A DNA stretch of 64,000 nucleotides from an uncultured Gemmatimonadaceae bacterium (GCA_963829055.1 CAWHHI010000011.1:64001-128000); one strand, 5' to 3'. Shown: positions 1,652 through 64,000, numbered from the stretch's first letter. Translations and numbers: made by a program. Notes: generated by a model from the sequence alone, not told the origin.

Positions 1652-2594
1652 CGACGGCGCCCGCCGTCCTGCCCAGCGCTCCTCCACGTCCGCCGCGCGA
1701 CGTACTCCGGTCGATACGGCACGTGGCGCGCTCGTCCTCATCGGCGGCGCCTGCAGCCCCGACGGCGACGCGTTAGGTACGTTCATCCGTCTCGCCGGAG
1801 CCGATCGCGGTGCCGGGATCATGGGCTTCACCACGGCGTCGAGCAATCCTGTGCGCGCCGCGGCCGCCTGGCGGAAGGACTTCGCTGCGGCGGGTGTCGA
1901 GAACGTCGAGTTCCCGCTCGTGCAGAACCGCGACGCCGCGAACGACGCTGCGCTAGCCGATCGCGTGCGAGAATCGCCCGGCCTCTTCCTCGGCGGTGGT
2001 GATCAGGTGCACCTCATCGCGACGCTGAGCGGTACGCTGCTGGGCGCCGCGATCCGCGAGGCGTTCGTGCGCGGCGCGGTCGTCTGCGGCACGAGCGCGG
2101 GCGCGGCGGCGCTCACCGAGACGACGATGGCGGGCGGTGAGGTCGACGAGGATGGAAAGGAGGTCGAGATGTACATCGGCCCGGGACTCGGCCTGCTCTG
2201 CTTCGGAACGCTCATCGATACACACTTCGCGCAGCGCCGGCGACTGCATCGTCTCTTCGTGGCGATCGCCGGCTACCCGCAGCTCATGGGCCTCGGTATC
2301 GACGAGGACACGGGCCTGGTGGTGCGCGGCTCGATCGGCGAGGTGGTCGGCAAGGGTGGCGTCACGTTCGTGGACGGTCGCGACACGGTGCGCTTCGACA
2401 ACGCGAGCCAGGTGAAGAAGGGTGGCGAGCTGACGCTGAGTCATCTCCGCGTCGGGCTGGTCGGGACGGGACAGCTGTTCGATCTGGAGGCGAGAGAGCT
2501 CGTTAGGCTCGTTGCGTCGGAGGCCGTCGTCCGGGCCGGCAATGGTGAGGTGGGAACGAGGAACCGGGAACGGGGGACTGGAGCCGCTCGCTGA
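1638..2594 (+). CDS. cphB: Cyanophycinase (peptidase S51)
   Basis: LVLIGG, GGGDQ, GTSAGA nucleophile motif, DTHFAQRRRLHRL and GIDEDT; overlaps the preceding gene by 14 nt. Confidence 0.92.
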   Translation: MASGSDGARRPAQRSSTSAARRTPVDTARGALVLIGGACSPDGDALGTFIRLAGADRGAGIMGFTTASSNPVRAAAAWRKDFAAAGVENVEFPLVQNRDAANDAALADRVRESPGLFLGGGDQVHLIATLSGTLLGAAIREAFVRGAVVCGTSAGAAALTETTMAGGEVDEDGKEVEMYIGPGLGLLCFGTLIDTHFAQRRRLHRLFVAIAGYPQLMGLGIDEDTGLVVRGSIGEVVGKGGVTFVDGRDTVRFDNASQVKKGGELTLSHLRVGLVGTGQLFDLEARELVRLVASEAVVRAGNGEVGTRNRERGTGAAR

Positions 2595-2620
2595 CGGTTG
2601 TCATCCGAGCGAACGTCCGT

Positions 2621-2670
2621 GTCATCCCGAGCGGCAGCGAGGGATCTCCTCGAACGTGATTGGTGGCCAG
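2621..2670. repeat. REP-like family 1, half copy
   Basis: GTCATCCCGAGCGGCAGCGAGGGATCT is identical to the left arm at 36304. Confidence 0.7.
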
Positions 2671-2683
2671 AATTGCTGCGATA

Positions 2684-2802
2684 TCCAACACAGAAGGACG
2701 CGCGTCGCTGCTGCGCCTCGGGTTGCCCGTGCGGCAGTTTTCTGCGTCCTTCTGCGTTGCGCGCGCAGCGCCGCCTGCGTCATTCTGCGTCGCTGTTGGA
2801 CC
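2684..2802. repeat. Partial copy of palindromic family 3 (CAGAAGGACG / TTCTGCGTCGCTGTTGGACC)
   Basis: Right arm is nearly identical to 16656-16722. Confidence 0.75.
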
Positions 2803-2845
2803 TCGATAACCCACTGTATTCCAGAACGGGCAGAACAGCCCTCCG

Positions 2846-4312
2846 TTATCGCACGAAAACCCGGTACCCATTTGCCGGAATCTCGATCTTCCCGTCCGTC
2901 GCGAGCGACGCCGACGCCTTCGTGAACCACTCCGTGTACCCGCCCGGACGCGTTAGGCCGCGGTACGACACCGACGCCGGCTTGTCGGCGAAGTTGAGCG
3001 CCACCAGCACCGTGTTGTCATCCCGCGACCGTGTGAATGCGTACACACGGTCACCGCCATCGGTCGCCAGCTTCACCTGCGGGCCGCCCCACGGGCCGTT
3101 CGCGAGCGCCGCCTGCGTGTGCTTGAGGTCGAACACCGAACTATAGAAGTCCGCGAGCGACGGACCCGTCCAGTCCACCGTGTCCTTCTCGAAGAAGCGC
3201 AGACGCTTCTTCATGCTCACCTCCTGCCCCGTGTACAGGAGCGGCATCGACCGCTGCGCCGTCGCGCTCAGCACGAACGCCGGCTTGTGGTTCGCGCCCA
3301 TGCGCTCGAACTCCGAACCGTTCCAGCTGTTCTCGTCGTGATTGCTCGTGAAGTACATGCGATACGCGCCCGGGCCGTACACGCTATCGTCCTTGGCGAA
3401 GTACGCGTCGAGCGCCGGCGTACCCTGCTTCCCCTGCGCGATGGCGTTCATCAGGTGGTGCAGGTCCCAGCCGTACGTCATGTCGAACGCCGCATGCATG
3501 CGCGGGTCCTCGGCCTCGGCCAACAGGAACAGGGCCGGAGCGCGCACCTTGAGCGCGGTGCGTGCCTCTACCCAGAAGTCGACCGGGACGCCGCCGGCCA
3601 CATCGCACCGGAAGCCGTCGATGCCCGTACTATCGATCCACCACTTCATCTCGGCGATCATGGCCTGACGCAGCGCGGGATTGCGAAAGTCCAATTCGGC
3701 GACGTCCGTCCAGTCGGTCTCCTTCCCCTCGTTGTCACGCGCGTTCATGAGCGAGCCATCGGCGCGCCGCTCGTAGTAGTCGGGATGCGCTGTGACCCAC
3801 TCGTGATCGTACGCGGTGTGATTCGCGACCCAGTCGAGAATGACTCTCATCCCCCGCTGATGCGCGCCGGCCACGAACGCGCGGAAGTCCTCGATCTTGC
3901 CGAACTCGGGATTCACTGCCGTGTAGTCGCTGATGGCGTAGTAGCTCCCGAGCTTGCCCTTCCGGTTCTTGACGCCAATTGGCTGCACCGGCATCAGCCA
4001 CAGGATGTCGACGCCTAGCTTCTCCAATCGCGGCAGGTGCGTCTGCAACGCGGCGAGCGTGCCCTCGGGCGTGTACTGCCTGACGTTCACCTCGTAAATC
4101 ACCGACTTGCGCGACCACGACGGATGGAAATCCGGATCCGCGCTCGGCCGTGAAGCAGCGACGGGATCGTTAGGTCTCGCCGCGCTGCCCGGTGTCGCCG
4201 CCGCGCTCGATGCAGTCGCAGCCGCCGCGGAATCGCCACTCGCTGCCTTGGAAGAGGGCGAACACGCCAGCAGCGCGATCGCGGCGGTCACAGGGGGAAG
4301 AGCGGTGCGCAT
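2846..4312 (-). CDS. GH13 alpha-amylase family lipoprotein
   Basis: GGAG before ATG 4312; lipobox-like ALLAC; IYEVNVRQ, LDWVANHT, DGFRCDVA, LAEAE and NHDE conserved regions. Confidence 0.9.
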   Translation of the reverse strand: MRTALPPVTAAIALLACSPSSKAASGDSAAAATASSAAATPGSAARPNDPVAASRPSADPDFHPSWSRKSVIYEVNVRQYTPEGTLAALQTHLPRLEKLGVDILWLMPVQPIGVKNRKGKLGSYYAISDYTAVNPEFGKIEDFRAFVAGAHQRGMRVILDWVANHTAYDHEWVTAHPDYYERRADGSLMNARDNEGKETDWTDVAELDFRNPALRQAMIAEMKWWIDSTGIDGFRCDVAGGVPVDFWVEARTALKVRAPALFLLAEAEDPRMHAAFDMTYGWDLHHLMNAIAQGKQGTPALDAYFAKDDSVYGPGAYRMYFTSNHDENSWNGSEFERMGANHKPAFVLSATAQRSMPLLYTGQEVSMKKRLRFFEKDTVDWTGPSLADFYSSVFDLKHTQAALANGPWGGPQVKLATDGGDRVYAFTRSRDDNTVLVALNFADKPASVSYRGLTRPGGYTEWFTKASASLATDGKIEIPANGYRVFVR

Positions 4313-4362
4313 ATGAATCTCCGGCTGTGAGTCGTTCGGCCGACCCATCTGGCGATCGAAAA

Positions 4363-6018
4363 TCACGGTGAAGGCGAGAGCTGCACGACGTGCGCCTTCA
4401 TGGGCGCAAGCGTGACCGACGGCACGTAGCCTCGCACGCTTCCATCCGCAGCGACGGAAATTGGAGCGACATTCGCCCCGACCAGGCTCCGCGCCGAGTA
4501 CTGTCCCGCGGGCAACGCACCGCTCGGAAACGTGAGCGTCACGTTCGAGAGCGCCGCCTGCCCTACGTTCGCGACGACGAGCACCACGGTCGTGCCATCC
4601 CGGCGAAGATACGCGGCGACGGCGTCGCTCGACGCAACGAGTGGCAGGAAATCACCGCGGCCGAGCGCAGTGTTGCCTGCCCTGAGGTGAATGAGCGTGC
4701 GGTACGCCGCGAGCAGCGAGGTCGTGTCGGTCTCCTGCGCCGCGACGTTCGTCGTTGGCCAATTCGCGTTGAGCGGCTCCCACGGCGTGCCGCTCGTGAA
4801 CCCCGCCCCGGCCGACGCCGTCCACTGCATTGGCGTTCGCAGTTGCTCGTCCGGCTTATCGCCGGTCATCCCGATCTCCTCGCCGTAGTAGACGAACGGC
4901 GTGCCTGGGAGCGTGAGCAGGAGCGTCGCCGCGACCTTCACGCGCTGGGTGTCGCCGCCCAGGGCGGTCAGCGTGCGCGTCTGGTCGTGATTGCGCAGGA
5001 ACGTCGACCAGCGGGCGTTAGGCACCTCCTGCTGGAAGCGCTGGAAGCGTCGCATCAACGCCGACGCCGATCCCGTCCGCACGGCGGCGAGCAGATCGTC
5101 CGACAGATCGAACGCGAAGTACGACTCGAGCTGATCAGGATAGTAGGGTAGCATCTTGTCGATGCCGTCCCATACCTCACCGACCGTGAACGCCGTCGGC
5201 GCGACGGCCCGAACGTGAGCCGCGTACTCGCGCAGGAATGCGTGCGTCCCCGCCGTGCCGATTTGCTTCGCGCCCTCCTCCACCAGATACGGCACCGCGT
5301 CGAGCCGGAAGCCGTCGACGCCCATCTGCGTGAGCCAGAACGTGGCGATCCGCTTCGCCTCGTCCCGAACGGCCGGCGTATCGTAGTTCAGATCCGGCAT
5401 GCCCTGCCAGAAAACTCCATAGTAGTACTCGATCGCGCAGTGGCGAGCGGTGCCACACTTCCTGCCCCCACGGCCCGAGCTCCGCCGGCTTCGTCGCGGA
5501 CCATCGGAACCAGGCTCGGTGTGGCGCCGTCGGCCCACCTAACGCGTCACGAAAGTATGGATGCTCGCTCGACAGGTGATTCAGCACCATGTCGACGACG
5601 ACGGCGATCCCCCGCCGGTGCGCCTCGACCACGAGTCGCGTGAAATCCGCGTTCGTGCCGTAGTCCGGCTCGATGCGGTAGTAGTTCGTGGCGTCGTACC
5701 CGTGATAGCGTCGGCGACTCGGCCACCGGCATGAGCCACATGCACTGGGCGCCGAGATCCCGGCTCGTGGCGGGATTGCCGTCGTTGATGTAGTCGAGCT
5801 TCTCGGTGAGCCCGCGGAGATCGCCGATGCCGTCGCCGTTGCTGTCGTAGAACGACCGGACGAACACTTCGTAGCACGTAGCGCCGCGTCGCCAGTCAGG
5901 CACGGCGCTCGTCACCGGCGTGGAGGGCAGCAACGTGGTGTCGCGCTGCCGCGTGTTGGTCGGCGCGCCACACCCTACAGCCCGCGGAGAACGCGGCGAC
6001 GCGAGCGGGCGTTGTCAT
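4363..6018 (-). CDS. GH13 alpha-amylase family protein, probably a lipoprotein; split by apparent +1 frameshifts (about 5980, 5710, 5430); start uncertain
   Basis: [56 protein letters not shown] and YYGEEIG are spread over three ORF fragments; AVGC near the N-terminus. Confidence 0.82.
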
Positions 6019-6159: not shown

Positions 6160-7734
6160 TCAATAGCCCGTGTTCTGCTTGAGGTTCGGGTTGGCGCTGA
6201 GCTCCGTCACCGGCAGCGGATACAGATTGCGGAATGCCTCCGTGGTCTTCCCCGCGGCCACGTTGCCCTTCCAGGCCCAGATGCCCGCCGTCGTGAAACG
6301 ATCGAAGCGAATCAGGTCCGTGCGCCGATGCCCTTCCCAGAACAGCTCACGCGCCCGCTCGTCGCGGAGGAAGTCGAGCGTCAGCTGTGCATCGGTGATG
6401 TTGCCGGTCGCGTTGCCGTAGGCCCGCGCGCGGAGCGCGTTTACGTAGGTCAGCGCCTGCGCGCGCGATCCACCGCCACCTCTCACGACGGCCTCGGCGT
6501 ACATGAGGTACGCGTCGCCGAGCCGGAACATCGGGAAATCGATGTCGGAGAAGCCCGTGCTCGATCCCGGCGCGCCCGTGGACGTGACGTTGCGATACTT
6601 CGGCGCACCGAGACCGGTGTTGAAGTCGGTGAGGTTCGTCATCGCGAGCGACTGGCCATCCGTGTAGAAGATCCCCGACCGCCGATCACCCGCACCCGTC
6701 GCGTTGGGGAATAGCGCCACGAACTCCGGTCGCGCGCGCAGTCCGTACCAGCCGCCATCGAGGCCGAACGCCGTCGCGTTCATGGTGCCACCGACTGCGG
6801 CATGCGTCAGGAACGTCGTTCCACCGAAGGATTGCGTCTTGGTCCCGTCGAACGGAACCGCGAAGATCAGCTCAGCAGACTTGTTGTTGTCGGCGAGGAA
6901 CAGCCGCTGATAGATCGGTTCGAGCTGGTACGAACCAGCGATCACTTTTTCGAGCTCCGTTCTAGCCTCGGTGGCGCGCTCGGTGCCGGTGTACACCTTT
7001 GCGTTCAGGTACACCTTTGCGAGCAGCATCGCCACGGCACCCTGGTCCGCACGCCCATAGGAAGCGCGCGGCGCCGGCAGCTCGGTCCGGATCGCCGTCA
7101 GCTCGGAGACGATGTAGTTGTACACTTCGGCGCGCGTACTCTGCTTCGGTGGCGTCCTGCCTAACGCGAACTCCTCGGTGACGAGCGGGATGTCGCCGAA
7201 GAGATCAATGCCGTGCCAGTAGCTGAGCGCGCGGAGGAAGCGTGCTTCGGCACGGTACTGCTTCACCTGCGCGAGCAGGTTACCAGTCACGTTGCGCGAG
7301 GCGAGCTTCTCATCGGTCGTTTCGCGGAGGAACTCGTTCACGAGCCCCACCTGGAAAAAAACGCGGCCGTACATCGCCTGCAGGAACTGGTTCGACGACG
7401 ACCACAGCTGCGTGTTGAGCTCCTGCACGCCGGCGTCGTTCCACGCGATCGCCGTTTCATCCGTCGGCAGCTCCTGCATCTGCCAGATCAGGCGGATGTA
7501 GCCACCGAACCCCTCGTCGATACCCTGGATGTCCGGGCGTCCTGCCGGGCCTTCCTGCCCGGACACCTGCAGGCCGCCATAGATCTTGGCGATGAATGCC
7601 TTGTACGAGCTCGGCTCGTTGAACGCGTTCACGTTCGTGAGCGAGCTCTTTGGCGGTGACGTCAGGTCCGTACACGCCGCGACCGTGACGAGTGTCAGTG
7701 CCGCAAAGAGCGTCGTCCGTGCCGTCGTCTTCAT
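6160..7734 (-). CDS. susD: RagB/SusD family nutrient-binding outer-membrane lipoprotein
   Basis: GGAG plus ATG 7734; lipobox VAAC; AEARFLRAL, FRLGDAYLMYAEA, ERARELFWEGHRRTDLIRF and terminal NPNLKQNTGY; downstream of susC. Confidence 0.92.
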   Translation of the reverse strand: MKTTARTTLFAALTLVTVAACTDLTSPPKSSLTNVNAFNEPSSYKAFIAKIYGGLQVSGQEGPAGRPDIQGIDEGFGGYIRLIWQMQELPTDETAIAWNDAGVQELNTQLWSSSNQFLQAMYGRVFFQVGLVNEFLRETTDEKLASRNVTGNLLAQVKQYRAEARFLRALSYWHGIDLFGDIPLVTEEFALGRTPPKQSTRAEVYNYIVSELTAIRTELPAPRASYGRADQGAVAMLLAKVYLNAKVYTGTERATEARTELEKVIAGSYQLEPIYQRLFLADNNKSAELIFAVPFDGTKTQSFGGTTFLTHAAVGGTMNATAFGLDGGWYGLRARPEFVALFPNATGAGDRRSGIFYTDGQSLAMTNLTDFNTGLGAPKYRNVTSTGAPGSSTGFSDIDFPMFRLGDAYLMYAEAVVRGGGGSRAQALTYVNALRARAYGNATGNITDAQLTLDFLRDERARELFWEGHRRTDLIRFDRFTTAGIWAWKGNVAAGKTTEAFRNLYPLPVTELSANPNLKQNTGY

Positions 7735-7793: not shown

Positions 7794-10782
7794 TCAGAAC
7801 CCCACCGTGAAGCCGGTCATGAACGTGCGCGACTGCGGGTAGATGTTCCTGTCGATCCCGGTGACGCCGGCCGTCGGATCGATGCCGGAATAATCGGTGA
7901 GCGTGAACACGTTCTGGATCGTGCCGAAGACGCGCAGCTGCTTCAACGATCCGAATTTCGGCAGCCGATATCCGATGGTGACGTTGTCCAGGCGCACGAA
8001 CGACGCGTCCTCGACGTACACGTCGGAGAAGTACTGCGGATTCACGAACCCGGTGTTGAGCACCGAGGCATCGAGGTTGCCCGGGGCGGCGCCTTTGACG
8101 GCGCTGTAGTGTCCGAGGTTCGAGGCAATGTTGTTGTACACGTAGTTGCCGAGATACGCGCGAAGCGTGAAGCTCCCGTCGAAGTTCTTGAAGTTCATCT
8201 GCGACGACGCGCCGAGGATCCACTTCGGTGCCGGACTCTTGTACGGACGGAGATCGTCCTGGTTCACGTTGCCGTCGCCATTGAGATCGACGTACAGGTC
8301 CTTGTCGTCGATGTTCTTGTCGCCGTTCGTGTCGGCGTACACCGGCTTGCCGTTCGCGTCGCGCTTGTGCTGGTACACGAAGAACGAGTTCACGGGGTAG
8401 CCTGGCTTCAGCACTTCGACGTTGCTGCCGACGCCGCCGTCAATGGGGCCGACGAGAATCTGGTTGCCGCCCGTCCCGCCGGCGTTGATCCCCAGCAGCT
8501 TGTTGTCGTTCTTTGCCGCGTTGAGCGACGCGTCCCAGCTGAACGCGCCGTTCGTCCCTTCGAACACGCGGTAGTTCAGTCCGAGCTCGATGCCGCGGTT
8601 TTCCATGCTGCCGATGTTCGTGGTGACGAAGTTCGACAGGTTCGTCCCCGCGGCCACCGGGACGTTGAAGATGAGATCCTCGGTTTTCTTGTAGTAGTAG
8701 TCGATCGTTCCCGTTAGGCGGCTCGACAGGAGTCCGAAGTCGAGGCCGACGTTCGTGGATGTCGTCTCCTCCCACTTGATGTCCGGATCGACCGCGCTCG
8801 GCCGGATGGTCGTCACGAACTCATCGCCGAACTGCACCTGCGCGAGGTTCGTACCGACCGTGTACGTCGAATACGCCAGATAGTTGTTGAACGCCTGGTT
8901 GCCGTTCACGCCCCATGAGAGGCGCAGCTTGAGGTCGCTCAGCCAGCCGACGTTCTTCATGAACGATTCATCGATCACGCGCCATGCGAACGCGGCGGAC
9001 GGGAAGATGCCCCACTGGTTGTCGGGGCCGAATTTCGATGAGCCATCACGCCGCACGCTGCCCGTGAGCAGGTACTTGTCCTTGAACGAGAGATTCGCGC
9101 GGCCGAAGAACGACACGAGCCGGCTCTCCTGCGTATCGAGGAATGTCTGCTGCGTCTTCGACCCCGGAATGCCGTTAGGCCCGAGGAGATCGGTGCTCAG
9201 ACCGACCGCGAGCGCGCGCGTCGAATCGTACTGGAAGTTCTCGTACGTGTAGCCGCCGGTGACGTCGAGATTGCTGCTGTATTTCGTGAACTGGTGGTTG
9301 TAGTTACCGAACAGTTCCAGCAGCGTGTTCAATTGACCCGGCGTGTTCTCGCTGAACGTGCCGCCGGTGCTGTTCTCGAGTTGCCCCTGGGCGGTACTGG
9401 GCGAGAAGCTCGTCCGCTGGGCCGTCGCATAGTCGTACCCGCCGCGAGCCGTGGCTGAGAGGCCGGTGACCCACGGCAGCTGATACTTGGTCTCGAGGTT
9501 GCCCACGCTGCGGTACTCCGTGCCTTCGTCCGTCAGCAGCTCGAGGTCCGACAGCGGGTTATTGGCGCCTAACGGGTCCGCCCACTGGAAGTACGACCCC
9601 GACGCGTTGCGGATCGGCTGCGTCGGCGCGAATGATGTCGCGGCGCCGAGGACGCCGTTTGGCGTGAAACGATCGTCGGTGCGGCTGCCCTTGATGTTCG
9701 CCCGCACGTCCAGCGCGTGGTTGAGCACCAGGTCGCCATACGAGAGGGCAAGGGATGTCCGTTGCGCGGTGCTGCCTTCGAGCACGCCGTCCTGGTTCAG
9801 GTAGCCTAACGATGCGCGGTAATGCAGGTCATCGCGGCCGCCGGCCAGTGCCACCAGGTGATCCTGCCCGAACCCCGAGCGCTGGATCGCGCCGCGCCAG
9901 TCGGTGCTGGCCGTGCCGAGCTTGCTCGTATTCTCCGGGGCATACTGCGTGACCGCCGAACGGAACTGCGTCGCGTCCAGCAGATCCGCCTCACGCGCCA
10001 CCGTCGAAGTGGAGACGGACCCCGAGTACGACAGCTGCATGCCCTGCGCACCCGACTTGGTCGTGATCAGGACGACGCCGTTCGCGCCGCGCGATCCGTA
10101 GATCGCCGTCGCCGACGCATCCTTCAGCACCGTCATGTTCTCGATGTCGGACGGGTTCAGGAAGTTGAGCGGGTTACGGCCCGCGTTCACGCCACCGCCG
10201 ACAGGCAGCGGCACGCCATCGAGCACGAACAACGGCTCGTTGCTGCTCGTGACGGACGTCCCTCCGCGGATACGGATGTTGACGGTCCCACCCGGCTCGT
10301 TGCTCCCAATCACCTGCACGCCCGGGACTTTCGCCTGAATGAGTTGCTCCGGACTGACGACGCGCCCGGTGTTGAACTGCGTCGAGTCGACCGACGCCAC
10401 TGCCCCCGTGCTATTGCGCGCCTCCTGCGTTCCGTACCCGACGACCACGATGTTGCTGAGCGTAGCCGCGGACGTCGCGAGTGAGAAGTCGGCAGTGGTC
10501 TCCCCGTTGGCCGTGACGGTGAGTCCGGTGACGGAATCGGGCGCGAAGCCGAGCCGGAGTCGCGCGCACGGTGTATCTGCCCGGCTGAACGGTGATGGTG
10601 TAGCGCCCGTCGTCACGAGTCACCGCGCCAGTCGTGGTTCCCGCCACGACCACCTGCGCGCCAGGGATGGGCCGGGCTCCTTCAGCGGAGGTGACTTTGC
10701 CGGTGATCCTTCCTGTTTGTGCGAGGACAGGCGCGCCTACGACGACCGTTGCTGCGAGAACGACAAACGCTGTTCGCCACAT
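7794..10782 (-). CDS. susC: SusC/RagA family TonB-dependent transporter (+1 frameshift near 10560)
   Basis: Signal peptide MWRTAFVVLAATVVVGAPVLAQ; carboxypeptidase-regulatory-like N domain; VVVGYG, PLFVLDG, LKDASATAIYGSRGANGVVLITTK and KWEET motifs; terminal F. Confidence 0.92.
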
Positions 10783-10901: not shown

Positions 10902-11343
10902 ATCGCACCAGCGATGCGGCGCTGCGGCGCGTCATGGACGGGGCATCATCAGCGACGGATCGCCGAAAGGCAGGGGCGCGCGGAGACCGCCGTCCGCGAG
11001 GGACACGTTAGGCGCGCGACACGGCGCCAGCACGGGCGTTGCCGGTTCATCGGTCCCCTCCTGCGAGCACTGTCCACCCCACCTCACCCCACCCTTCCCG
11101 GCGTGCACGCTACGAACGCACGGGTCCCGACCAACCGGGAATTCGCCTGCAGCGCTGGCTGGCAATCACGTTTCGTCCGAGAGTCGCCGCTGTCAAGGGC
11201 ATTAACGGTCACGAAGCGTCTGCCGCGACGGGCGGTACACCCGCTCGCGCGAATCATCGTCCGGGTATAGTCTCCTCCGACGTGGCCGGCGATCGGCTCG
11301 CCACGCGTTGCTTCACGATCACGTTCAGACCTGCTCCAACCCC

Positions 11344-14277: not shown

Positions 14278-14488
14278 ACAGCAGGACAGGATGGCAGGAT
14301 TGACAGGATTGGACGGCTTGCAGCTCGGGCGGCCTCGCGCAACGAGCCGGGAATGAGGGGAACGCCCGGTCGGGACGCCACTCTCCCCGAGATGTGTTCC
14401 TTCATTCGTTAGGCCCGGCGGCGCGCTCCCCGACGCCGCGGCGGTCATCTTCTCAATCCTGTCAATCCTGGCCATCCTGTCTTGCTGT
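14278..14488. repeat. Palindromic element, family 4 (ACAGGAT-type arms)
   Basis: ACAGCAGGACAGGATGGCAGGATTGACAGGATTG is inverted against CAATCCTGTCAATCCTGGCCATCCTGTCTTGCTGT; interior shares CCTCGCGCAACGAGCCGGGA with family 5. Confidence 0.75.
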
Positions 14489-16418: not shown

Positions 16419-16448
16419 TGGCTGCCTAACGGACACAGACGTCATCTC

Positions 16449-16724: not shown

Positions 16725-16774
16725 CCGACCAGAGCGTGCCCGTCCCGAACGCCTAACGACGCGAGATCAGGCGG

Positions 16775-41131: not shown

Positions 41132-41315
41132 TCGACGGGTTCCGACGCGTCAGTGACGTCCGTCACGTTACGCGGGCGCGGCACTGCTCGCTGTCGCGGC
41201 GCGTCGACAGAGCCCAGTCGCCTGTAGTCCACAGCCAACACCGAGCGATCGGTGTGACACGCCTGGCCTACGACTCAACCCGTTGATCGACATCGCGTTA
41301 GGTCCCGTGCCACCG

Positions 41316-43488: not shown

Positions 43489-43529
43489 ATTCTGCCGCCA
43501 ATCGTTAGGCCGGCACTAACGCGGCGGCA

Positions 43530-57640: not shown

Positions 57641-57821
57641 GGCCCCACCCGACCAGCGACCAGCTCCATCCCAGCGGCAGACTGGACTTTCTATTCGTCC
57701 CGCCTAACGGTCGTCTCGTCACCGCGCGTCACGACTCGCAGATCGCGAACAGCGCGCGCGGTGCCCGCGCCGCATCTTGGAAGCGTCCAGGACCGTCCAC
57801 CTCCATTCAAGGGCGCCGGCC

Positions 57822-58438: not shown

Positions 58439-60422
58439 ATGATCAACCCAGCCGCCGAGTGGCTCGAGGCCGACGGGCTCGGCGGCTTCGCGTTTGGTCG
58501 CGCCGACGGCGTGCGCACGCGGCGATATCACGCCACGCTGGCAGTCGCGACCACGCCGCCTACCGGACGCGTCGTGCTCGTGAACGGCTACGACGCCTGG
58601 ATCGAGACCAGAGAGGGACGGTTCGCCATCTCATCGCAGCGGTACACGCCCGACGTGACGCACCCGGACGGCGCCGCTCGCATCGCGCGATTCACGCGCG
58701 ACCCGTGGCCCACGTGGACCTACGTGCTGCCTAACGGGATCGAGGTGATCCACGAGCTCGTCGCGGTTCGCGGTGCACCGGTCGTTGCGCTCTCGTGGCG
58801 CGTGAATCGCCAGGATGACGCACGCCTCATCGTCCAGCCGTACCTCTCCGGACGCGACATCCATGCGCTGCACCACGAAAACAGCGCATTTCGGTTCGAC
58901 GCACGGGTCGATGGGCACCGTGTCGCCTGGCAGCCGTATTCCACGCTACCGCCCGTCGTCGCGCTGGCGAGCGGCGACTACGAAGCAGACCCGGCGTGGT
59001 ACCGTCAATTCCAGTATGACGAGGAGCGCGCGCGCGGCCAGGACTTCGTCGAGGATCTCGCGATGCCTGGGCGCTTCACATTCTCCCTGAGGCAGCGCGC
59101 CGTGCTCGCGTTAGGTGCAGGTTCCGGTGCGGGTGAGCCGCATCGTACTCGATCTACTCTCCGCATCGCCGGAGCAATGCTGGGACTCGATCGGGACGAG
59201 CGAACGCCAACGGCGCGCGTCGTTCCCGTCCGCACTGCACCGAGCCGCCGACGACTACATAGTCGCGCGCGGCGCCGGAAAGACGATCATCGCCGGATAC
59301 CCGTGGTTCTCGGACTGGGGCCGCGACACGTTCATCGCGATGCGCGGTCTCTGCATCGCGGGCTCGGAGGCAGGCCGGCGACTCGACGACGCCCGCGAGA
59401 TCCTGCTCGAGTGGGCCGAGCATGTGAGCCACGGCATGCTGCCGAACTTTTTCCCGGAGGGCGGGAAGGCCGCCGAGTACAACTCGGTGGACGCATCGCT
59501 CTGGTATGTCATCGCCGTCTACGACTTTCTGAGTCGAGCTTCGTCGGCGCGTCCCGTCGCAGCGGCCGATCGACGCACGCTGCTCGGAGCGGTCGACGCC
59601 ATCGTGAACGGCTATGCCCGAGGCACTCGTTATGGAATCCGCGCCGACGGCACTGGTCTTCTCGCCGCCGGCGAGATGGGCGTCCAGCTCACGTGGATGG
59701 ACGCGAAGGTCGGTGACTGGGTCGTGACTCCGCGCATTGGTAAGCCGGTCGAGATCCAGGCGCTATGGATCAACGCCCTTCGTATGGCGGGACAACGATC
59801 CGATCGCTGGGCCGCGCTCGCGACGCTCGCGCAGGCGACGTTCGCGGAGCGGTTCTGGAATGACGAGCGCGGCTTCCTGTTCGATGTCGTCGACGTCGAT
59901 CATACGGACGGCGTGAACGACGCGAGCCTGCGTCCGAATCAGATCTTCGCCGTTGGCGGTCTCCCGTTCCCGATCCTCGACGGAGAACGCGCTCGACGCG
60001 TCGTGGACATCGTCGAGCATCAGCTCTGGACGCCGGCTGGCCTTCGCTCGTTAGGCCGCACCGAGCCGGGGTACACTGGTCAGTACCGCGGCACCGCCCG
60101 TGAGCGCGACGGGGCGTACCATCAGGGTACGGTGTGGCCGTGGCTCATTGGCGCATTTGTCGAGGCGTGGCTCCGCGTTCGTGGAGACACCGCGGACAAC
60201 CGGCGTGAAGCGCGCAGGCGGTTCCTCGATCCGCTGCTCCGGCACTTCGACGCGAGCGCGCCGGGACACGTGGGCGAGATCGCGGACGGCGACGCCCCGT
60301 ACCGCGCACAGGGATGTCCGTTTCAGGCGTGGTCGGTGGGTGAGGCGCTGCGACTGAGCGAGGAGGTCCTGCGCGAGCCAAGCGAATCACCGAACGCGAG
60401 CGCGCCGGGCAGAAACCGCTGA
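58439..60422 (+). CDS. Amylo-alpha-1,6-glucosidase (glycogen debranching enzyme); +1 frameshift near 59132
   Basis: EWLEADGLGGFA, TRRYH, IIAGYPWFSDWGRDT, YNSVDASLW, LTWMDAK, LRPNQ, YHQGTVWPWL and GCPFQAWS. Confidence 0.92.
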
Positions 60423-61198
60423 TACAGCCGACGAGCGAGCACGCGGGCCTTCACTCCCGCCCATCGCGGCGGAAGCATCGACGCCGGCAACTCGGGGTCC
60501 TTCCACGCGACCTCGAGAAACGAGAGGACGACCGCGAACCGGAGCCCGAACTGCGTCGCGAGCGGGATCGTCGCCGCACGCCGACGGCCAAGCGGGTCGA
60601 AGCGTCGCAGGAACACAGCGTATTCCTCGCCGAGTCGCTCGAGGTCCCAGTAGGCGTAGGCGAAGTCGCGGTCGGAAACACCGTGGATCTTGTCGGCGCG
60701 AAATGCCGTCACGAACTCGGCGACGCCAAGATCGCCGACCGCTCGGCGAAGGCGCTCGGCGCGATCGCGGGCGTGGACGTAGGTGCCGTTGCCCAGCGGA
60801 GCAAAGCCTTCGACCTGGAGGATGTTCCGCACGCGCTCGCGCTCCAGGCGCATCTCCGTCGGAAAGCGCGTGAGCACGAGCGTCCAGTAGCCGTCCCATC
60901 CCGTTTCGGGCGTCGCGAAGATCTTCTGCACGCCGGCACCAATCTCGGCGCGCGCGTACGGGGACGCCTTGTACATCTTCACTCGACCGACCCGTCGGCT
61001 GATGAGCTCTTCGTCGCGTTCCATGCGAAAGAGCGTCTGGCGGACCGCGGCGGGCGAGACGCCTAACGACTCGAGGGCGGCGACGAACCAGGTGCCGGCG
61101 ACTTCCCCACCTCGCCGGTCGCCATAGAAGCTCAGCGCCGAGTAGATGAGGTAACTGACCGGAGCATCGGTGACGGTGGACAGCAGGGCGTCGAACAT
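60323..61198 (-). CDS. PaaX family transcriptional regulator
   Basis: AVRQTLFRM winged helix; WDGYWTLV, YWDLERL and DPELPASMLPPRWAG; 3' end overlaps the convergent gene by 100 nt. Confidence 0.85.
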   Translation of the reverse strand: MFDALLSTVTDAPVSYLIYSALSFYGDRRGGEVAGTWFVAALESLGVSPAAVRQTLFRMERDEELISRRVGRVKMYKASPYARAEIGAGVQKIFATPETGWDGYWTLVLTRFPTEMRLERERVRNILQVEGFAPLGNGTYVHARDRAERLRRAVGDLGVAEFVTAFRADKIHGVSDRDFAYAYWDLERLGEEYAVFLRRFDPLGRRRAATIPLATQFGLRFAVVLSFLEVAWKDPELPASMLPPRWAGVKARVLARRLYQRFLPGALAFGDSLGSRRTSSLSRSASPTDHA

Positions 61199-61203
61199 AG
61201 CGG

Positions 61204-61329: not shown

Positions 61330-61457
61330 TGCTGACGCGTTCCACCAGTGTGCTGCCAGCTCGGCTAGTCACACTACAGTTGACAATATTGCGTCTTTCG
61401 CCGACCGTCTGGTAAGTGTCCACGCTGTAGAAGATCGGAGTCACTCGGTCCACCGCC

Positions 61458-62831
61458 ATGATCGTCGCTCGCACCGCTGTCGCCGGCATCATTGCCGGCT
61501 CGCTCTACGCTCTCGCCGGCGATGTGCCGTCGCGAGACGCGCAACACCAGGCCGACGCGCCGTTGGCTATCGTGGACGTCACCGTCATTCCCGTCGTCAC
61601 CGCGGGAACGCTCCCGCGTCAGACGGTGCTGATTCGAGACGGCAGAATCATCGCCGTCGGGCCCAGAGCGTCGGTTCGCCTTCCCGGCAATGCACGTGTG
61701 ATCGATGGGCGAGGGAAGTTTCTCGTCCCGGGTCTCGTTGACGCGCACGTTCATCTCGAAGAAGTGGCCGACCTCCCGCAGTTCGTCGCAGCGGGCGTGA
61801 CGACCGTTCGTGATCTCATGGGTTCTCCAGAAACGCTCGCGTGGCGCAAGAACACCGCTGACGGAACGGTGGTCGGCCCTCGCGTCATTGCCGCCGGGCC
61901 GCTGTTCGCCGGCCCTCAGGTCCCGTGGCGGAAGAAGTTCGTGACGGAGGATCCCGACTCGGCCCGTGCCGAGGTGCGGCGTCAACACGCGGCGGGCTAT
62001 GACCTGGTGAAGATCTACGACGGACTCACCGCGCCAGTGTACGCGGCGGTGATGGACGAGGTGCACGCGCTCGGAATCACGGCGACCGGCCACATTCCCG
62101 CGGCTGTGCACCTGAGCGGCGTGCTCGCCGCGAAGCAGAATCTCGAGCACACGGACAAGATCGCGTTCGACGTGTTCAATGGCACACCCGATACGACGCG
62201 TATCGATTCCGTGGCTCGGGCGATCGCAGCGGCAGGCGTATTCGTGACGCCGACCATCGCGAGCATGCAGCAACTGGCGCGTGTCGGGTCGGGCGCATTC
62301 GATTCGCTGCTCGCGCGGCCCGAAGCGCGGCGCGCGGGTCCGGTGACGCTCGACGTCTGGTGCACGTACACGGTGCGGCTGCGCGGCACCCGCACGGTAC
62401 CAGCGGGGACTCGCTACAACCGCGGGACCGACTTTCAGATGAGGATCGTGGACGCGGAGCGGCGGGCGGGCGTCGCGATACTCGCGGGAACCGACTACCC
62501 GAACGCGATGCTCGCGCCTGGTGGAAGTCTGATCGAGGAGATGATCGCGTTGCGCGAGGCCGGCCTCTCGAGCGCCGATGCACTCCGCGCGGCGACGCTC
62601 ACGGCCGGGCGCGCGATTGGCGATAGCACCTCGGGGCTGATCAGGGCGGGAGCGCGCGCCGATCTCGTTCTCGTCGGCGGCAATCCCCTGGACGATCTGC
62701 ACGCGCTCTCCCGAGTGGACGCCGTGGTTCTGAATGGCCGCTGGCTCTCGCGCGCAGTTCTCGACTCGATTGCGCCGCTTCCTGCCGCTGCGCCCAGTTG
62801 CCCTGGAAGCGCGCCGCGGTCGTTCGAGTGA
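61458..62831 (+). CDS. Metal-dependent amidohydrolase family protein, probably secreted
   Basis: GGAG RBS; PGLVDAHVH, GVTTVRD, VKIY, GH, EH, AGTD and ADLVLVGGNPL. Confidence 0.9.
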   Translation: MIVARTAVAGIIAGSLYALAGDVPSRDAQHQADAPLAIVDVTVIPVVTAGTLPRQTVLIRDGRIIAVGPRASVRLPGNARVIDGRGKFLVPGLVDAHVHLEEVADLPQFVAAGVTTVRDLMGSPETLAWRKNTADGTVVGPRVIAAGPLFAGPQVPWRKKFVTEDPDSARAEVRRQHAAGYDLVKIYDGLTAPVYAAVMDEVHALGITATGHIPAAVHLSGVLAAKQNLEHTDKIAFDVFNGTPDTTRIDSVARAIAAAGVFVTPTIASMQQLARVGSGAFDSLLARPEARRAGPVTLDVWCTYTVRLRGTRTVPAGTRYNRGTDFQMRIVDAERRAGVAILAGTDYPNAMLAPGGSLIEEMIALREAGLSSADALRAATLTAGRAIGDSTSGLIRAGARADLVLVGGNPLDDLHALSRVDAVVLNGRWLSRAVLDSIAPLPAAAPSCPGSAPRSFE

Positions 62832-62833
62832 GT

Positions 62834-62952
62834 TGTCATTCCGAGCGAGCGAAGCGAGTCGAGGAATCGCGATTGTGATGGGTAGAGGGCCCTCTATCCG
62901 TATGATCGCGATTCCTCGACTGCGCCGCTCCGCGGCTCCGCTCGGAATGACA
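62834..62952. repeat. REP-like palindromic element, family 2
   Basis: TGTCATTCCGAGCGAGCGAAGCGAGTCGAGGAATCGCGAT ... ATCGCGATTCCTCGACT ... CGCTCGGAATGACA; central TAGAGGGCCCTCTA. Confidence 0.85.
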
Positions 62953-63068
62953 ACGCGCTCGTCCCCGCTTTGCGACGAGCGGGCCCACCGACGCTGACGC
63001 AGCCCAATGACCGCGCGATAGATTCGGCATACGCGTTCGATCTACTGCCGCCTCCTCCGGAGAGCTGA

Positions 63069-64000
63069 ATGGACCGCGTCAGGCACGACATCCGCTTCGC
63101 CCTCCGCGGCTTCCGCCGCTCACCGTCGTTCACGATCACGTCCGTTCTGATCCTCGCCATTGGAATCGGCATGGCCGTGGCGATGTTCACCGTGTTCGAC
63201 GCGGTCGTCATCCGCCCGCTGCCCGTCACCAGCCCCGACCGGGTGGTGGAGCTGTTCACGTACAAGGGCGACCCCAACACCGACTACTACGTCCTGCGCG
63301 AGGATCTGACGAAGGTCGCCGCCACGAGCAAGACGATGCGTGACGTCGCGGGCGTAGCGCACTGGGGCGCGCCCTCCGCGCCGCTCGTCGACGGCGACCG
63401 GCCGCTCGTGCTCAATCGGACGCTCGTCACCGGCAACTTCTTCAACGTGTTAGGCACGCGACCGCTGCTCGGCCGGCTGGTGCAGCCGAGCGACGAGGCG
63501 CCCGGCGCGGAGCTCGTGCTCGTGCTGAGCTACGGCGCGTGGCGGAAACACTTCGGTGGCGACCCGAAGATCGTCGGACGCCGGCTGATGGAGCCGTACG
63601 GCCGCAAGGATTACCGGGTCATCGGAGTCGCGCAGCCGGGGCTCGAGTACCCTGCAGCGGTCGACGTCTGGATGCCGGCGTGGCAGCCATCGGCCAACCT
63701 GTCGGTCATCGCCGTCGCGCGGCTCGCACCTAACGCGACGCCGCGGATGGCGCAGAGCGAGTTTCTGCGGATCATGAAGAGCCTGTCCGCGGACCGCGAG
63801 TACGACGGCGCGCACGTCGAGACGTTCACGCACGCGGTGGTCGGCGATGTGCAGCCCATCCTCGTCGTGCTGGCTGCCGCGGTTGGTCTCCTGCTCCTCA
63901 TCGCGTGCGTCAACGTCGGCAACCTGCTACTCCTCCGCGCAGCCAGTCGCGCCCGCGAGCTCTCGGTCCGGCGCGCGCTCGGCGCAACGTACGGCGACGT
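63069..64000 (+). CDS. MacB/FtsX-type (ADOP-like) ABC permease, 3' truncated by the window edge
   Basis: GGAG then ATG 63069; MDRVRHDIRFALRGFRRSPSF, LLLIACVNVGNLLL and RELSVRRALGA. Confidence 0.88.
   Translation, partial: MDRVRHDIRFALRGFRRSPSFTITSVLILAIGIGMAVAMFTVFDAVVIRPLPVTSPDRVVELFTYKGDPNTDYYVLREDLTKVAATSKTMRDVAGVAHWGAPSAPLVDGDRPLVLNRTLVTGNFFNVLGTRPLLGRLVQPSDEAPGAELVLVLSYGAWRKHFGGDPKIVGRRLMEPYGRKDYRVIGVAQPGLEYPAAVDVWMPAWQPSANLSVIAVARLAPNATPRMAQSEFLRIMKSLSADREYDGAHVETFTHAVVGDVQPILVVLAAAVGLLLLIACVNVGNLLLLRAASRARELSVRRALGATYGD

Follow-up and report, generated by a model that had tools for sequence, protein, structure and literature searches.

Among the repeated words described from bacterial genomes, Chi and KOPS are read by polar readers (RecBCD and FtsK, respectively) that leave strong strand skews, while the cyanobacterial HIP1 is a palindrome for which a methyltransferase link has been proposed. 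Uptake sequences, the self-recognition tags of Neisseria and Haemophilus, have no orientation bias or gene-end bias and accumulate gradually by molecular drive, according to an excerpt of PMC1939737. Integrons have a short core site published as GTTRRRY (PMC3053210, in excerpt), and single-stranded DNA acquired by natural transformation is a source of cassettes for chromosomal integrons (PMC12614218, in excerpt). Here we describe a single eight-letter word, CGTTAGGC, present in ~5,000 copies in the genes of a soil bacterium and written against that bacterium's own codon habits. Its pattern is similar to that of the Neisseria and Haemophilus tags, with matching density and strand symmetry, and it has the same properties as those listed for uptake sequences in the excerpt of PMC1939737, but it lacks the inverted pairs that Neisseria uptake sequences form at terminators. 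Unlike HIP1 it is non-palindromic, as an earlier note on this DNA had pointed out, and it is without the skew of Chi and KOPS. The word also coincides with the attC R' core of integrons extended by a single base, which the earlier note had overlooked. That note had not recognised the motif as described, and the literature searched gave no earlier description of CGTTAGGC as such a genome word.

Abundance and specificity of the word

The window, i.e. the whole stretch of 64,000 nucleotides analysed, holds 54 copies of CGTTAGGY, 28 on the + strand and 26 on the - strand, exactly as the earlier note had counted by hand and with every coordinate it listed matched; 43 are CGTTAGGC and 11 are CGTTAGGT. 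Dinucleotide-preserving shuffles of the window (n = 100) gave a mean of 1.68 copies and a maximum of 5, with 0 of 100 reaching 54. In the 7.78-Mb genome CGTTAGGC occurs 5,004 times (2,547 on + and 2,457 on -), 19 times the number given by an order-3 Markov model and ~330 times that of a background trained without the word. Most TTAG/CTAA tetramers fall within the motif (54 of 65 in the window, as noted before, and 5,831 of 8,933 genome-wide). Copies within genes number 1,680 in sense and 1,462 in antisense orientation, against 40–57 and 77–125, respectively, in synonymous-codon shuffles (n = 10) and 35–40 and 37–56 in codon-order shuffles (n = 5). Enrichment thus holds under both Markov and codon-preserving nulls, bearing out the view that the constraint acts on DNA and not on protein. 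Orientation is balanced, with 87,141 forward and 86,768 reverse copies when the family's 78 rich genomes are pooled, and opposite GC-skew classes (377 + and 327 - copies at skew > 0.01; 603 + and 624 - at skew < -0.01) agree with the earlier statement that a Chi- or KOPS-like strand bias is lacking.

Nothing outside the 8 bp is informative (largest flank value 0.13 bit). Substitution is tolerated only at positions 1 and 8 and as G6T (16–78-fold enriched), with positions 2–5 and 7 intolerant (0.7–3.7-fold), a protein-like profile of specificity. The frequent variants TGTTAGGC and CGTTAGGT have 435 and 827 copies in the genome. With both strands counted, 63 sites in the window differ from CGTTAGGC by one base, the 11 of CGTTAGGT included, and the earlier figure of about five such variants was too low.

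Placement in genes and spacing

The word is present in coding and non-coding DNA and in all frames that avoid an internal TAG or TAA. In the window, sense copies of CGTTAGGC read GCG TTA GGC at 7159..7166 (-), 43016..43023 (+), 44781..44788 (-; MacB/FtsX gene, kept in congeners G002 and G005) and 46104..46111 (-; kept in three of four aligned congeners); CCG TTA GGC at 9567..9574 (-), 42272..42279 (+; P450 gene), 33220..33227 (-; AcrB-type gene) and 33829..33836 (-), the last two both kept in G001 and G002; and TCG TTA GGC at 9804..9811 (-), 14068..14075 (+; kept in four of five congeners, the fifth having CGTTAGGT), 15117..15124 (+; kept in all five), 54245..54252 (-) and 60049..60056 (+). 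The sense copy of CGTTAGGT at 1771..1778 (+) reads GCG TTA GGT. In another frame, sense copies of CGTTAGGC read CTC GTT AGG CTC at 2501..2508 (+), CGC GTT AGG CAC at 23030..23037 (+; absent in four aligned congeners), GGC GTT AGG CTC at 25041..25048 (+; LigD-like gene, kept in G001, G002 and G005) and 45404..45411 (-; absent in four aligned congeners), TTC GTT AGG CGA at 32601..32608 (-) and ACC GTT AGG CAG at 38291..38298 (-; kept in G003 and G004).

Antisense copies place CTA ACG in the gene, as GGC CTA ACG at 2951..2958 (+; kept in G001 and G002) and as CGC CTA ACG at 8712..8719 (+; TonB-dependent receptor gene), 14769..14776 (-) and 37785..37792 (+), the latter two kept in G001, G002 and G005, 18602..18609 (-; kept in G001 and G005) and 37069..37076 (+; four congeners have CGTCAGGC, one step off), with CGTTAGGT giving CAC CTA ACG at 26094..26101 (-) and TAC CTA ACG at 43889..43896 (+). 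Others read CCT AAC G, at 5016..5023 (+; absent in all five congeners, by lineage gain or repeated loss), 9173..9180 (+), 25368..25375 (-) and 54574..54581 (+), these two also absent in all five, 30268..30275 (-; kept in G002 and G005), 50220..50227 (+; M16 peptidase gene, kept in all five), 50856..50863 (+; kept in three of four aligned) and 51382..51389 (+), and for CGTTAGGT at 4168..4175 (+), 28441..28448 (-), 63728..63735 (-) and 33855..33862 (+), the last forming a rare close pair with the copy at 33829, at a distance of 26 bp.

Several copies touch gene ends: the complement of CGTTAGGC, GCC TAA CG, supplies the TAA stop of genes 14756-16429(+) and 60683-61066(+) at 16424..16431 (-) and 61061..61068 (-), CGTTAGGC read as CGT TAG at 35753..35760 (+) supplies the TAG stop of 34856-35758(+), and CGTTAGGT overlaps the edge of gene 4363-5538(-) at 5537..5544 (-) and the start of 59115-60422(+) at 59109..59116 (+). 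Between gene calls lie CGTTAGGC at 11006..11013 (+), 14407..14414 (+), 16751..16758 (-), 22521..22528 (-; kept in all four aligned congeners), 43503..43510 (+) and 57702..57709 (-; kept in G001 and G005), and CGTTAGGT at 36149..36156 (-) and 41296..41303 (+). Independent gene calls reproduced the codon readings proposed earlier at 1771, 2501, 18602 and 25041, whereas the copy of CGTTAGGC at 58729..58736 (-; kept in G001 and G002), previously read as CCT AAC GGG, falls outside them.

Genome-wide, density is 0.80 per kb in intergenic and 0.55 per kb in coding DNA. Writing the word into genes carries a cost: 1,222 of 2,752 TTA codons (44%) lie inside CGTTAGGC, which also forms 427 stop codons (218 of 888 TAA and 209 of 1,986 TAG) and writes 21.8% of [SPTA]LG, 19.9% of [SCRG]LT, 45.9% of PN[VADEG] and 9.6% of VR[LPHQR] tripeptides. 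For the next copy, the hazard rises from 0.14 per kb at 0–100 bp to 0.29 at 100–200 bp and 0.50 at 200–300 bp and levels off at 0.65–0.80 per kb beyond ~500 bp in all four orientation pairs, and opposite-strand pairs closer than 100 bp number only 14 and 16. Copies therefore repel each other below ~500 bp, with diminishing returns at short range.

Conservation, distribution and foreign DNA

Orthologous copies are identical in congeners (72–85% DNA identity) in 59 of 115 cases, compared with 452 of 3,910 (11.6%) flanking same-phase 8-mers. In genus g56, 28 of 41 copies are kept among rich congeners and 0 of 6 in the word-poor congener G124, where CGCTGGGC is among the forms seen, as would fit a commoner Leu codon if the g56 frame is as in G000. 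Gain of the word is ongoing: several window copies are missing from every aligned congener, and the usual neighbouring states at aligned sites are CGTCAGGC and CGTTAGGT. Point substitutions rather than insertions gave rise to the copies. Richness is bimodal in the family (probably Gemmatimonadaceae), with 78 of 251 genomes rich and 158 poor, and 24 of the 77 sampled genera are uniformly rich. With about a third of the sampled genomes rich, the term lineage-specific used in the earlier note has to be qualified. Mean genome size is 4.3–5.2 Mb in rich genomes versus 3.9 Mb, and 400 kb of a word-poor relative with similar GC contain 2 copies, in line with its own expectation of 1.6. G010 (genus g5) has a dialect, with 925 copies of CGTTTGGC versus 110 of the reversed control besides CGTTAGGC; the other 30 relatives showed no enrichment of CGTTTGGC.

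Foreign DNA is without the word, and the depletion that the earlier note proposed to look for is seen, the largest desert being G000 C6:5440-55037, which carries housekeeping genes with second copies elsewhere in the genome only 47–56% identical. The assembly appears to hold frameshifts, one example being the chorismate synthase gene of this desert, which is split in two; these would affect gene calls and not word counts. Dispersed copies, mostly non-attC, do occur in two genuine phage regions, which have 10 and 19 of them (0.49 and 1.25 per kb). Terminase, portal, head and holin genes, as well as repressor-like genes, are present in L287, and head, sheath and baseplate genes in L283.

Candidate readers

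Of the readings considered, we tentatively prefer CGTTAGGC as an uptake-sequence-like tag read by a protein, a reading that is plausible while falling somewhat short of an even chance. It is hardly credible that the word has no reader and that the excess comes from codon or dipeptide usage, biased mutation, faulty assembly or a repeat family that went unnoticed. No evidence for this was found, and it is contradicted by the codon shuffles (35–125 copies versus 1,462–1,680 observed per orientation), by uninformative flanks, which speak against a longer repeat, by the word-poor relative at its own expectation, by short-range repulsion, which mutation bias would not produce, by recurrence in 78 independent assemblies and by the conservation of copies at orthologous positions. 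A target of DNA modification, by an orphan or restriction-linked methyltransferase or by phosphorothioation, with abundance due to an epigenetic or repair role such as has been proposed for HIP1, is very improbable. Asymmetric 6–8-bp sites are typical of some modification enzymes, and the frequent variants TGTTAGGC and CGTTAGGT are C-to-T changes on the top strand, but restriction targets are normally avoided rather than enriched. In a search of three methyltransferase families, PF00145 (C5) and PF01555 (N4/N6) were each found in 0 of 7 genus genomes and PF02384 (N6) in 1 of 7 (MAGs 77–92% complete), while many word-poor relatives do carry them. Of the functions first listed (uptake, recombination or repair, modification and nucleoid-protein binding), modification is thus the disfavoured one, and in the families and genomes searched neither a methyltransferase matching the word nor a ComP-type pilin was found. 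Ties to integrons, in which the reader would be a protein of the integron-integrase family or a DNA-capture system tuned to the attC R' end, and genome copies its sites or a by-product of cassette-capture preference, are improbable to a lesser degree. A tie of this kind would account for unrelated lineages converging on one word. The copies of word-poor relatives are almost all attC R' ends, which lie next to intI in same-strand arrays and are arranged as GCCTAACA, a palindromic stretch and YCGTTAGGC, 80–95 bp apart in 36 of 46 listed sites; 30 of 38 attC sites found by their L' arm end in CGTTAGGC, all 38 having C before GTT. Cassette arrays on virus-labelled contigs (GC 0.48–0.67) use the same 8-mer, at least 70% of copies being attC-like in 15 of 22 loci with at least 5 copies, and the 7-mer of CGTTAGGC fits the core site excerpted from PMC3053210. 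However, IntI (E <= 1e-60) does not track richness, occurring in 54 of the 78 rich genomes and in 87 of the 158 poor ones (an odds ratio of 1.8 with no correction for relatedness); the only intI of G014, the richest relative, is frame-broken and split into three, and a search of G002, G004 and G010 gave no intI match. Of 43 window copies, only 1 passes an attC anatomy test that 22 of 23 and 7 of 8 copies pass in genuine arrays. Close pairs are depleted, and CGTTAGAC, an attC variant that accounts for 6 of the 38 sites, shows no genomic enrichment (24 observed versus 21 expected). The attC sites have Y at position -1, where genome copies are depleted in C (0.16), copies arose by substitution and not insertion, and off-site insertion by integrases needs only GWT, as stated in an excerpt of preprint 10.1101/2022.09.11.507474.

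A more serious candidate, although still rather unlikely, is an abundant DNA-binding protein reading the word inside the cell, such as a factor that structures the nucleoid or serves segregation, or a cofactor of repair or recombination, or else the word would be a 'self' tag sparing DNA from a host nuclease, with each copy slightly benefiting its segment and selection rather than uptake keeping about one per 1–2 kb. Strand and frame independence, repulsion, maintenance, dialect and absence from foreign DNA fit this as well as they fit uptake, and the tendency of rich genomes to be larger also favours it, as do the phage copies, which would follow if the word were of benefit to whatever DNA replicates in such hosts. 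The repressor-like genes of L287, however, suggest that these copies may just reflect long prophage residence. We know of no nucleoid or segregation protein with a strict 8-bp asymmetric word at ~5,000 sites, the counts by GC skew show nothing like the marks of RecBCD and FtsK, and without drive it is difficult to imagine a per-copy benefit large enough to have fixed rare codons 5,000 times.

Several observations speak against uptake itself: the identity with the attC R' end is real and unexplained by an uptake model alone, a receptor of arbitrary specificity not being expected to arrive at just this word repeatedly, and phage copies would be predicted only for long-resident prophages, yet two phage regions carry the word. 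Competence genes are present (ComEC, DprA, a ComEA-type HHH_3 fragment and secretins), but they do not discriminate rich from poor, HHH_3/ComEA-type genes occurring in 31 of 31 relatives. A ComP_DUS-type pilin was found in 0 of the 8 richest of 31 genomes searched (7 of g1 and G014), with a model that matched 0 of 14 controls, none of them Neisseria. On the uptake reading, CGTTAGGC would be the recognition word of a sequence-specific DNA-binding protein, and a process that works on stretches of DNA of a few hundred bases, blind to strand, reading frame and gene, would drive and hold about one copy per 1.5 kb. Such a process would most likely be the one that operates on uptake sequences in Neisseriaceae and Pasteurellaceae: the uptake apparatus would prefer fragments bearing the word, DNA imported from relatives would replace resident alleles by homologous recombination, and alleles with CGTTAGGC would thereby become more frequent through molecular drive, perhaps with selection assisting.

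Abundance, tolerance and coding context of the word

The window contains 54 instances of CGTTAGGY (28 on the plus and 26 on the minus strand), with all coordinates of the earlier note matched; 43 of these copies are CGTTAGGC (hereafter the word) and 11 are CGTTAGGT. Dinucleotide-preserving shuffles of the window gave a mean of 1.68 copies and a maximum of 5, and none of 100 attained 54. The studied assembly (GCA_963829055.1, here G000), in which the window spans 64001–128000 of contig C11, comprises 7,784,024 bp in 20 contigs with a GC content of 65–67.5% and carries 5,004 copies of CGTTAGGC (2,547 on the plus and 2,457 on the minus strand; 0.64 per kb), which ranks it 14th by count among the 8-mers of a genome otherwise dominated by CG-rich words. 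The enrichment proposed from the window alone extends to the whole assembly, as an order-3 Markov model predicts 257.5 copies, of which the observed number is 19-fold, and the word has the top z-score of all 8-mers under this model, with its own overlapping sub-words ranking next. With the word and its one-mismatch neighbours masked in the training of the background, 15.2 copies are expected and ~330-fold as many are observed. The informative comparisons are those with the lower-order and masked models; a maximal-order Markov test was rejected as a measure, leaving the word unflagged because its 7-mers hardly exist outside it.

The 12 bases on each side of the word carry ≤0.13 bit per base in G000, and it is therefore no fragment of a longer repeat. 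Relative to the masked background, one-mismatch variants are enriched at position 1 (T 65-fold, A and G each 16-fold), at position 8 (T 78-fold, G 51-fold, A 11-fold) and for the change of G to T at position 6 (16-fold), while changes at positions 2, 3, 4, 5 and 7 remain at 0.7–3.7-fold. This tolerance profile looks like that of a protein that would be strict about GTTAGG and more lenient about the C at either end. The sole enriched variant altered at an inner position, CGTTATGC (583 copies in G000, 16-fold over the masked background), may be a second tolerated form.

Genes of G000 were called crudely, from our own open reading frames scored with a codon model, and coding fractions are approximate because the assembly seems to contain frameshifts. 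The proposal that the constraint acts on DNA rather than on protein was borne out: a first set of 5,708 genes contains 1,680 sense and 1,462 antisense copies, with 40–57 and 77–125, respectively, in 10 synonymous-codon shuffles of these genes and 35–40 and 37–56 in 5 codon-order shuffles. In the same gene set, 1,222 of 2,752 TTA, 584 of 4,164 CTA and 458 of 7,159 AGG codons fall within the word, and 5,831 of the 8,933 TTAG tetramers of the assembly lie inside CGTTAGGY. A second set of 7,431 genes (82% coding) places 3, 1,333 and 522 sense copies and 8, 641 and 978 antisense copies in frames 1, 2 and 3, respectively, with 1,128 copies between genes and 391 crossing a gene boundary; frame 1 is barred because the word reads CGT TAG GC and GCC TAA CG on its two strands. 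Density in this set is 0.55 per kb in coding and 0.80 per kb in intergenic DNA. The word supplies 218 of 888 TAA and 209 of 1,986 TAG stop codons in G000, these being the two commonest stop contexts, and encodes a considerable share of particular tripeptides, namely [SPTA]LG (1,336 of 6,127), [SCRG]LT (645 of 3,245), PN[VADEG] (985 of 2,147) and VR[LPHQR] (528 of 5,508).

Spacing, strand and evolutionary turnover

Copies in G000 are separated by 1,529 bp on average, and in all four orientation pairs the hazard of a further copy climbs as one moves away from the previous one, from 0.14 per kb at 0–100 bp through 0.29 at 100–200 bp and 0.50 at 200–300 bp to 0.65–0.80 per kb beyond ~500 bp; copies therefore shun each other at short range. 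Intervals <100 bp are ~5-fold depleted genome-wide. This avoidance points to diminishing returns per DNA segment and is unexpected under mutation bias. One rare close pair is found in the window itself, where two facing copies lie 26 bp apart within an AcrB-type gene (33829–33862).

Of 4,984 adjacent pairs of copies in G000, 2,589 lie on the same strand. Chi (read by RecBCD or AddAB) and KOPS (read by FtsK) are likewise over-represented asymmetric 8-mers recognised by a DNA-processing protein, but they show a strong leading-strand skew and far lower enrichment than the word, whose strand split is at most 54:46. Stretches of G000 with GC skew >0.01 contain 377 plus and 327 minus copies and those with skew <−0.01 contain 603 and 624, so that the absence of a Chi- or KOPS-like strand bias seen in the window holds across the genome; a replichore check over 137 windows of 50 kb gave a correlation of 0.19, and the connection of word strand to replication is weak. 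An apparent strand polarity in another genus, g55, with 12–15 same-strand matches in series, was an artefact of listing order, as copies on contigs of this genus are intermixed by strand (27 plus and 23 minus; 44 plus and 25 minus).

The window was aligned to five congeners at 72–85% DNA identity. Copies are identical at the orthologous position in 13 of 23 (G001), 18 of 27 (G002) and 14 of 25 (G005) cases in the genomes with a word density similar to that of G000, and in 7 of 19 (G003) and 7 of 21 (G004) in those with about half its density. Conservation in orthologues, which the earlier note had named as a check, was thus found: 59 of 115 copies are identical vs 452 of 3,910 same-phase 8-mers within 60 bp to each side of a copy (odds ratio 8, with pairs non-independent). 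Orthologous positions without the word usually differ by one step, for example CGTCAGGC or CGTTAGGT, and copies differ between congeners by substitutions, not insertions. The window copies at 5016, 23030, 25368, 37069, 45404 and 54574 are carried by none of the aligned congeners and every congener has private copies, indicating that gain is ongoing. A further rich genus, g56, retains 28 of 41 copies among four rich congeners, and a more divergent, word-poor member (G124) has none at 6 aligned positions, with forms such as CGCTGGGC in their place. This form would be consistent with use of the commoner leucine codon, CTG for TTA, if the reading frame in g56 is as in G000.

The largest word-free gap in G000 (contig C6, 5440–55037; 49.6 kb, GC 0.70) encodes AroC, DAHP synthase, TrpG, FtsK, a peptidase M17 and other housekeeping genes, each of which has a second copy elsewhere in the assembly that is only 47–56% identical. 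Several genes in this segment look split by frameshifts. It is either foreign DNA from a large transfer or sequence of another organism joined in error, and in both cases it serves as an internal negative control; its lack of any copy agrees with the expectation that the word is scarce in foreign or recently acquired DNA. Two ~15-kb deserts on contig C4 were considered as mobile DNA and rejected, containing ordinary metabolic genes without a mobile-element hallmark.

Distribution in the family and candidate genes

Among 31 relatives, all 7 genomes of the genus of G000 are rich in the word (2,501–5,112 copies), as is G014 (6,360 copies in 5.1 Mb); G010 and G030 are moderate and 20 others have 5–65 copies. 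A survey of 251 genomes in 77 genera of the family revealed a bimodal density, with 158 genomes at <0.03 per kb (poor) and 78 at 0.1–1.34 per kb (rich), and of the genera 24 are rich throughout, 43 are poor throughout and 10 are intermediate or mixed. These tallies include four unpublished genomes (G013, G051, G052 and G150), on which the conclusions do not depend. For one window protein, the nearest named relatives come from Gemmatimonadaceae and Gemmatimonadetes MAGs at 49–52% identity, and none of the 78 loci retrieved through relatives of this protein contains ≥2 copies. The word-poor G008, of similar GC content, has 2 copies in 400 kb vs 1.6 expected from its own composition and no hyper-abundant 8-mer (top ratio 4.6). 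The idea that poor genomes with integrons avoid the word specifically was rejected on this count, which is like that of other SSTTAGSS words; low counts in poor genomes reflect a general scarcity of TTAG.

A second word, CGTTTGGC, is present in G010 (genus g5) in 925 copies vs 110 of the reversed control, on both strands and scattered among copies of CGTTAGGC, with a preceding T in 27 of 44; it is enriched in none of the other 30 relatives. We read it as a dialect, in which the specificity of the reader (the protein thought to recognise the word) would be altered at position 5. A different dialect suspected in G029 was rejected, as the top 8-mers of this genome are tandem heptamer microsatellites; GGTAAGA/GGTGAGA-type tandem heptamers occur at several places in this 70% GC genome (loci L068–L076).

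Genes that might account for the trait were sought among the same relatives. Methyltransferases co-occurring with the word, a possibility raised in the earlier note, did not materialise: families PF00145 and PF01555 are found in 0 of 7 genomes of the genus and PF02384 in 1 of 7, G000 has no member of any of the three, and many word-poor relatives encode them. A ComP-like pilin fared no better, with PF16732 in 0 of the 8 richest genomes among the 31 (14 control genomes included no positive control) and weak matches alone, in 4 word-poor genomes, across the 31 searched. The DNA-uptake machinery of G000 includes ComEC (144.9 bits), DprA (240.2 bits), a secretin (152.7 bits) and a ComEA-type HHH_3 fragment (35.4 bits), and HHH_3/ComEA-type genes are non-discriminating, being present in 31 of 31 relatives, rich or poor. 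These methyltransferase families, ComP_DUS and ComEA were accordingly rejected as discriminating genes, since none follows the trait.

Integron attachment sites

In the poor genomes G019, G021 and G029, copies of the word occur in same-strand arrays beside the integrase gene intI, 500–800 bp apart, and at 36 of the 46 array sites shown the word forms the 3′ terminus of a classic attC site (GCCTAACA, a palindrome and YCGTTAGGC, 80–95 bp apart). When attC sites were found through their L′ arm (n = 38), 30 ended in CGTTAGGC and 6 in CGTTAGAC, and a C preceded GTT in all 38. The attC core site is given as GTTRRRY in the accessible text of PMC3053210. The last seven letters of the word, GTTAGGC, match this core perfectly and, given the R′ ends that carry it in integrons of this order and in arrays from other organisms, the word amounts to the general R′ core of attC sites (GTTRRRY) with one base added.

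The genomic copies are themselves not attC sites. Both have the GTTRRRY core at the 3′ end, but genomic copies are without the inverse core RYYYAAC, the upstream imperfect palindrome of 57–141 bp and the same-strand arrays beside intI, and lie inside conserved genes, where they have arisen by substitution. An attC test accepts 22 of 23 and 7 of 8 copies from established arrays and 1 of 43 from the window. A full-length intI lies on contig C20 of G000 (208041–208958, minus strand; 265.7 bits, just at the family cut-off). A cassette array beside it was rejected, with an inverse-core-like heptamer properly placed in 2 of 8 copies and the rest ordinary, as was a stand-alone IntI N-terminal domain as reader (contig C4, 2862–3170, minus strand; 105.5 bits), which is a truncated remnant with two stop codons at its end.

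IMG/VR viral contigs were scanned for two copies 300–329 bp apart, giving at least 120 stretches, of which 80 were examined (L259–L338). The matches listed are mostly cassette arrays from organisms with GC contents of 0.48–0.67, and among them 15 of 22 loci with ≥5 copies have ≥70% attC-like copies. Many of the listed virus-labelled contigs are largely integron cassette arrays, such as L292, with 11 attC ends on one strand within 20 kb, and L317, with 10 within 4.5 kb; in the AT-rich L307 (GC 0.30), 8 copies follow one another on a single strand at intervals of ~108 bp, and most of these are not attC-like. Two of the listed matches are genuine phage regions with dispersed, mostly not attC-like copies: L287 (holin, large terminase, portal, head and repressor-like genes) with 19 copies in 15.2 kb (6 plus, 13 minus; 3 attC-like), and L283 (head, neck, sheath and baseplate genes) with 10 copies in 20.3 kb (9 plus, 1 minus; 1 attC-like). 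As both were chosen through the two-copy requirement, they prove the existence of such phages and not their frequency. In the myovirus-like L283, all but one of the 10 copies share the strand of the scanned structural genes, unlike the strand balance of the host genomes. L287 looks temperate from its gene content, and long residence as a prophage could explain its copies; no PF05065 or PF03237 match was found for a prophage in G000.

Possible readers and their meaning

Viable readings share a common core, namely a protein-read word occurring ~1 per 1.5 kb and a process that operates on stretches a few hundred bases long. By analogy, we tentatively favour an uptake-sequence mechanism, while holding it at somewhat below even, because it is the only known process that would yield the whole signature and because molecular drive, as described in the accessible text of PMC1939737, would explain the accumulation of thousands of costly copies. 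Like the uptake sequences DUS and USS, the word is short, non-palindromic, present at ~1 per kb equally on both strands and in several frames at coding cost, somewhat denser between genes and accompanied by one-mismatch forms enriched at tolerated positions; it is also common to related species, with the dialect CGTTTGGC in genus g5, and missing from foreign DNA. The same list of properties is given for DUS and USS in that text (PMC1939737). The word differs from them in its length of 8 bp without an extended consensus, in the lack of inverted pairs at terminators, in the lack of a ComP_DUS pilin match in the 8 richest genomes, in its coincidence with the integron attC core and in its patchy occurrence, in some genera of one family and not throughout it. 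The minor pilin ComP reads the DUS of Neisseriaceae, which have dialects. We know of no receptor for USS, the uptake sequences of Pasteurellaceae, and the missing ComP_DUS pilin is for this reason compatible with an uptake role; we also know of no case of natural transformation in the phylum.

An intracellular DNA-binding reader is a possible alternative to which we give less weight, the sequence data fitting it as well as they fit uptake and the phage copies fitting it better. A reader linked to integrons would best account for the identity of the word; this reading is nevertheless unlikely, since the distribution of IntI gives it no support, and against it also stands that off-site insertion by integrases requires only GWT according to the accessible part of a preprint (10.1101/2022.09.11.507474). 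At E ≤ 1e-60, IntI is present in 54 of the 78 rich genomes and in 87 of the 158 poor ones and does not follow the trait, and in the rich G014 the integrase gene is frame-broken with no other copy. That the word is a DNA modification target is improbable and disfavoured. HIP1, the highly iterated palindrome of cyanobacteria, is an octamer found at ~1 per kb across genes, maintained across species and linked to cognate methyltransferases; it is not known to have a settled function. The word resembles it in length, density across genes and cross-species maintenance, but is non-palindromic, as the earlier note had recognised (CGTTAGGC differs from its own reverse complement), and the genus of G000 is almost without the three methyltransferase families searched (0 of 7, 0 of 7 and 1 of 7). 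The site of a restriction-modification system is, moreover, usually avoided, whereas the word is enriched in G000. The absence of any reader is scarcely credible and likewise disfavoured.

Returning to uptake, a speculative extension, to which we attach slightly less weight than to an integron-linked reader, is that the word marks a DNA-capture preference set on integrons, which fills kin-exchanged chromosomes by molecular drive. An uptake step, or another step reading incoming DNA, would have evolved in some soil lineages and would recognise the attC R′ end CGTTAGGC, a sequence common to all gene cassettes. Cassette arrays would be preferentially imported as a result, and the cells' own chromosomes, swapped among kin by the same route, would fill with the word through molecular drive. 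Chromosomal integrons can recruit cassettes from DNA acquired by transformation, according to the accessible text of PMC12614218. If true, this scheme would tie cassette traffic in integrons to natural transformation and to the evolution of sequence across whole genomes, and would also account for a convergence of unrelated lineages on one octamer.

Within the literature covered, which leaves most subscription journals outside, the word strings matched primers or unrelated uses among the matches listed, nothing linked Gemmatimonad names to an uptake sequence, and matches combining Gemmatimonadetes, integron and attC were unrelated. Results that this analysis adds are the repulsion between neighbouring copies, their use as stop codons, the saturation of particular tripeptides, the bimodal density across the family, the comparison with IntI, the CGTTTGGC dialect and the contrast shown by G124. 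To our knowledge, genome words of the uptake type are known experimentally from two host-associated families of Proteobacteria only. The same genomic signature is now seen in uncultured soil Gemmatimonadaceae, on in about one-third of the sampled genomes and off in the rest, and the reader should therefore be findable by comparative genomics, the contrasts being 78 rich vs 158 poor genomes, a genus whose members are rich apart from one poor outlier, and a genus in which the word has changed. The identity of the word with the attC core was unexpected and may connect cassette traffic with DNA uptake or another genome-wide DNA-reading system. The reader, if found, would be a new sequence-specific DNA-binding protein and would open a route to studying gene exchange in this major soil phylum, which is hardly cultured.
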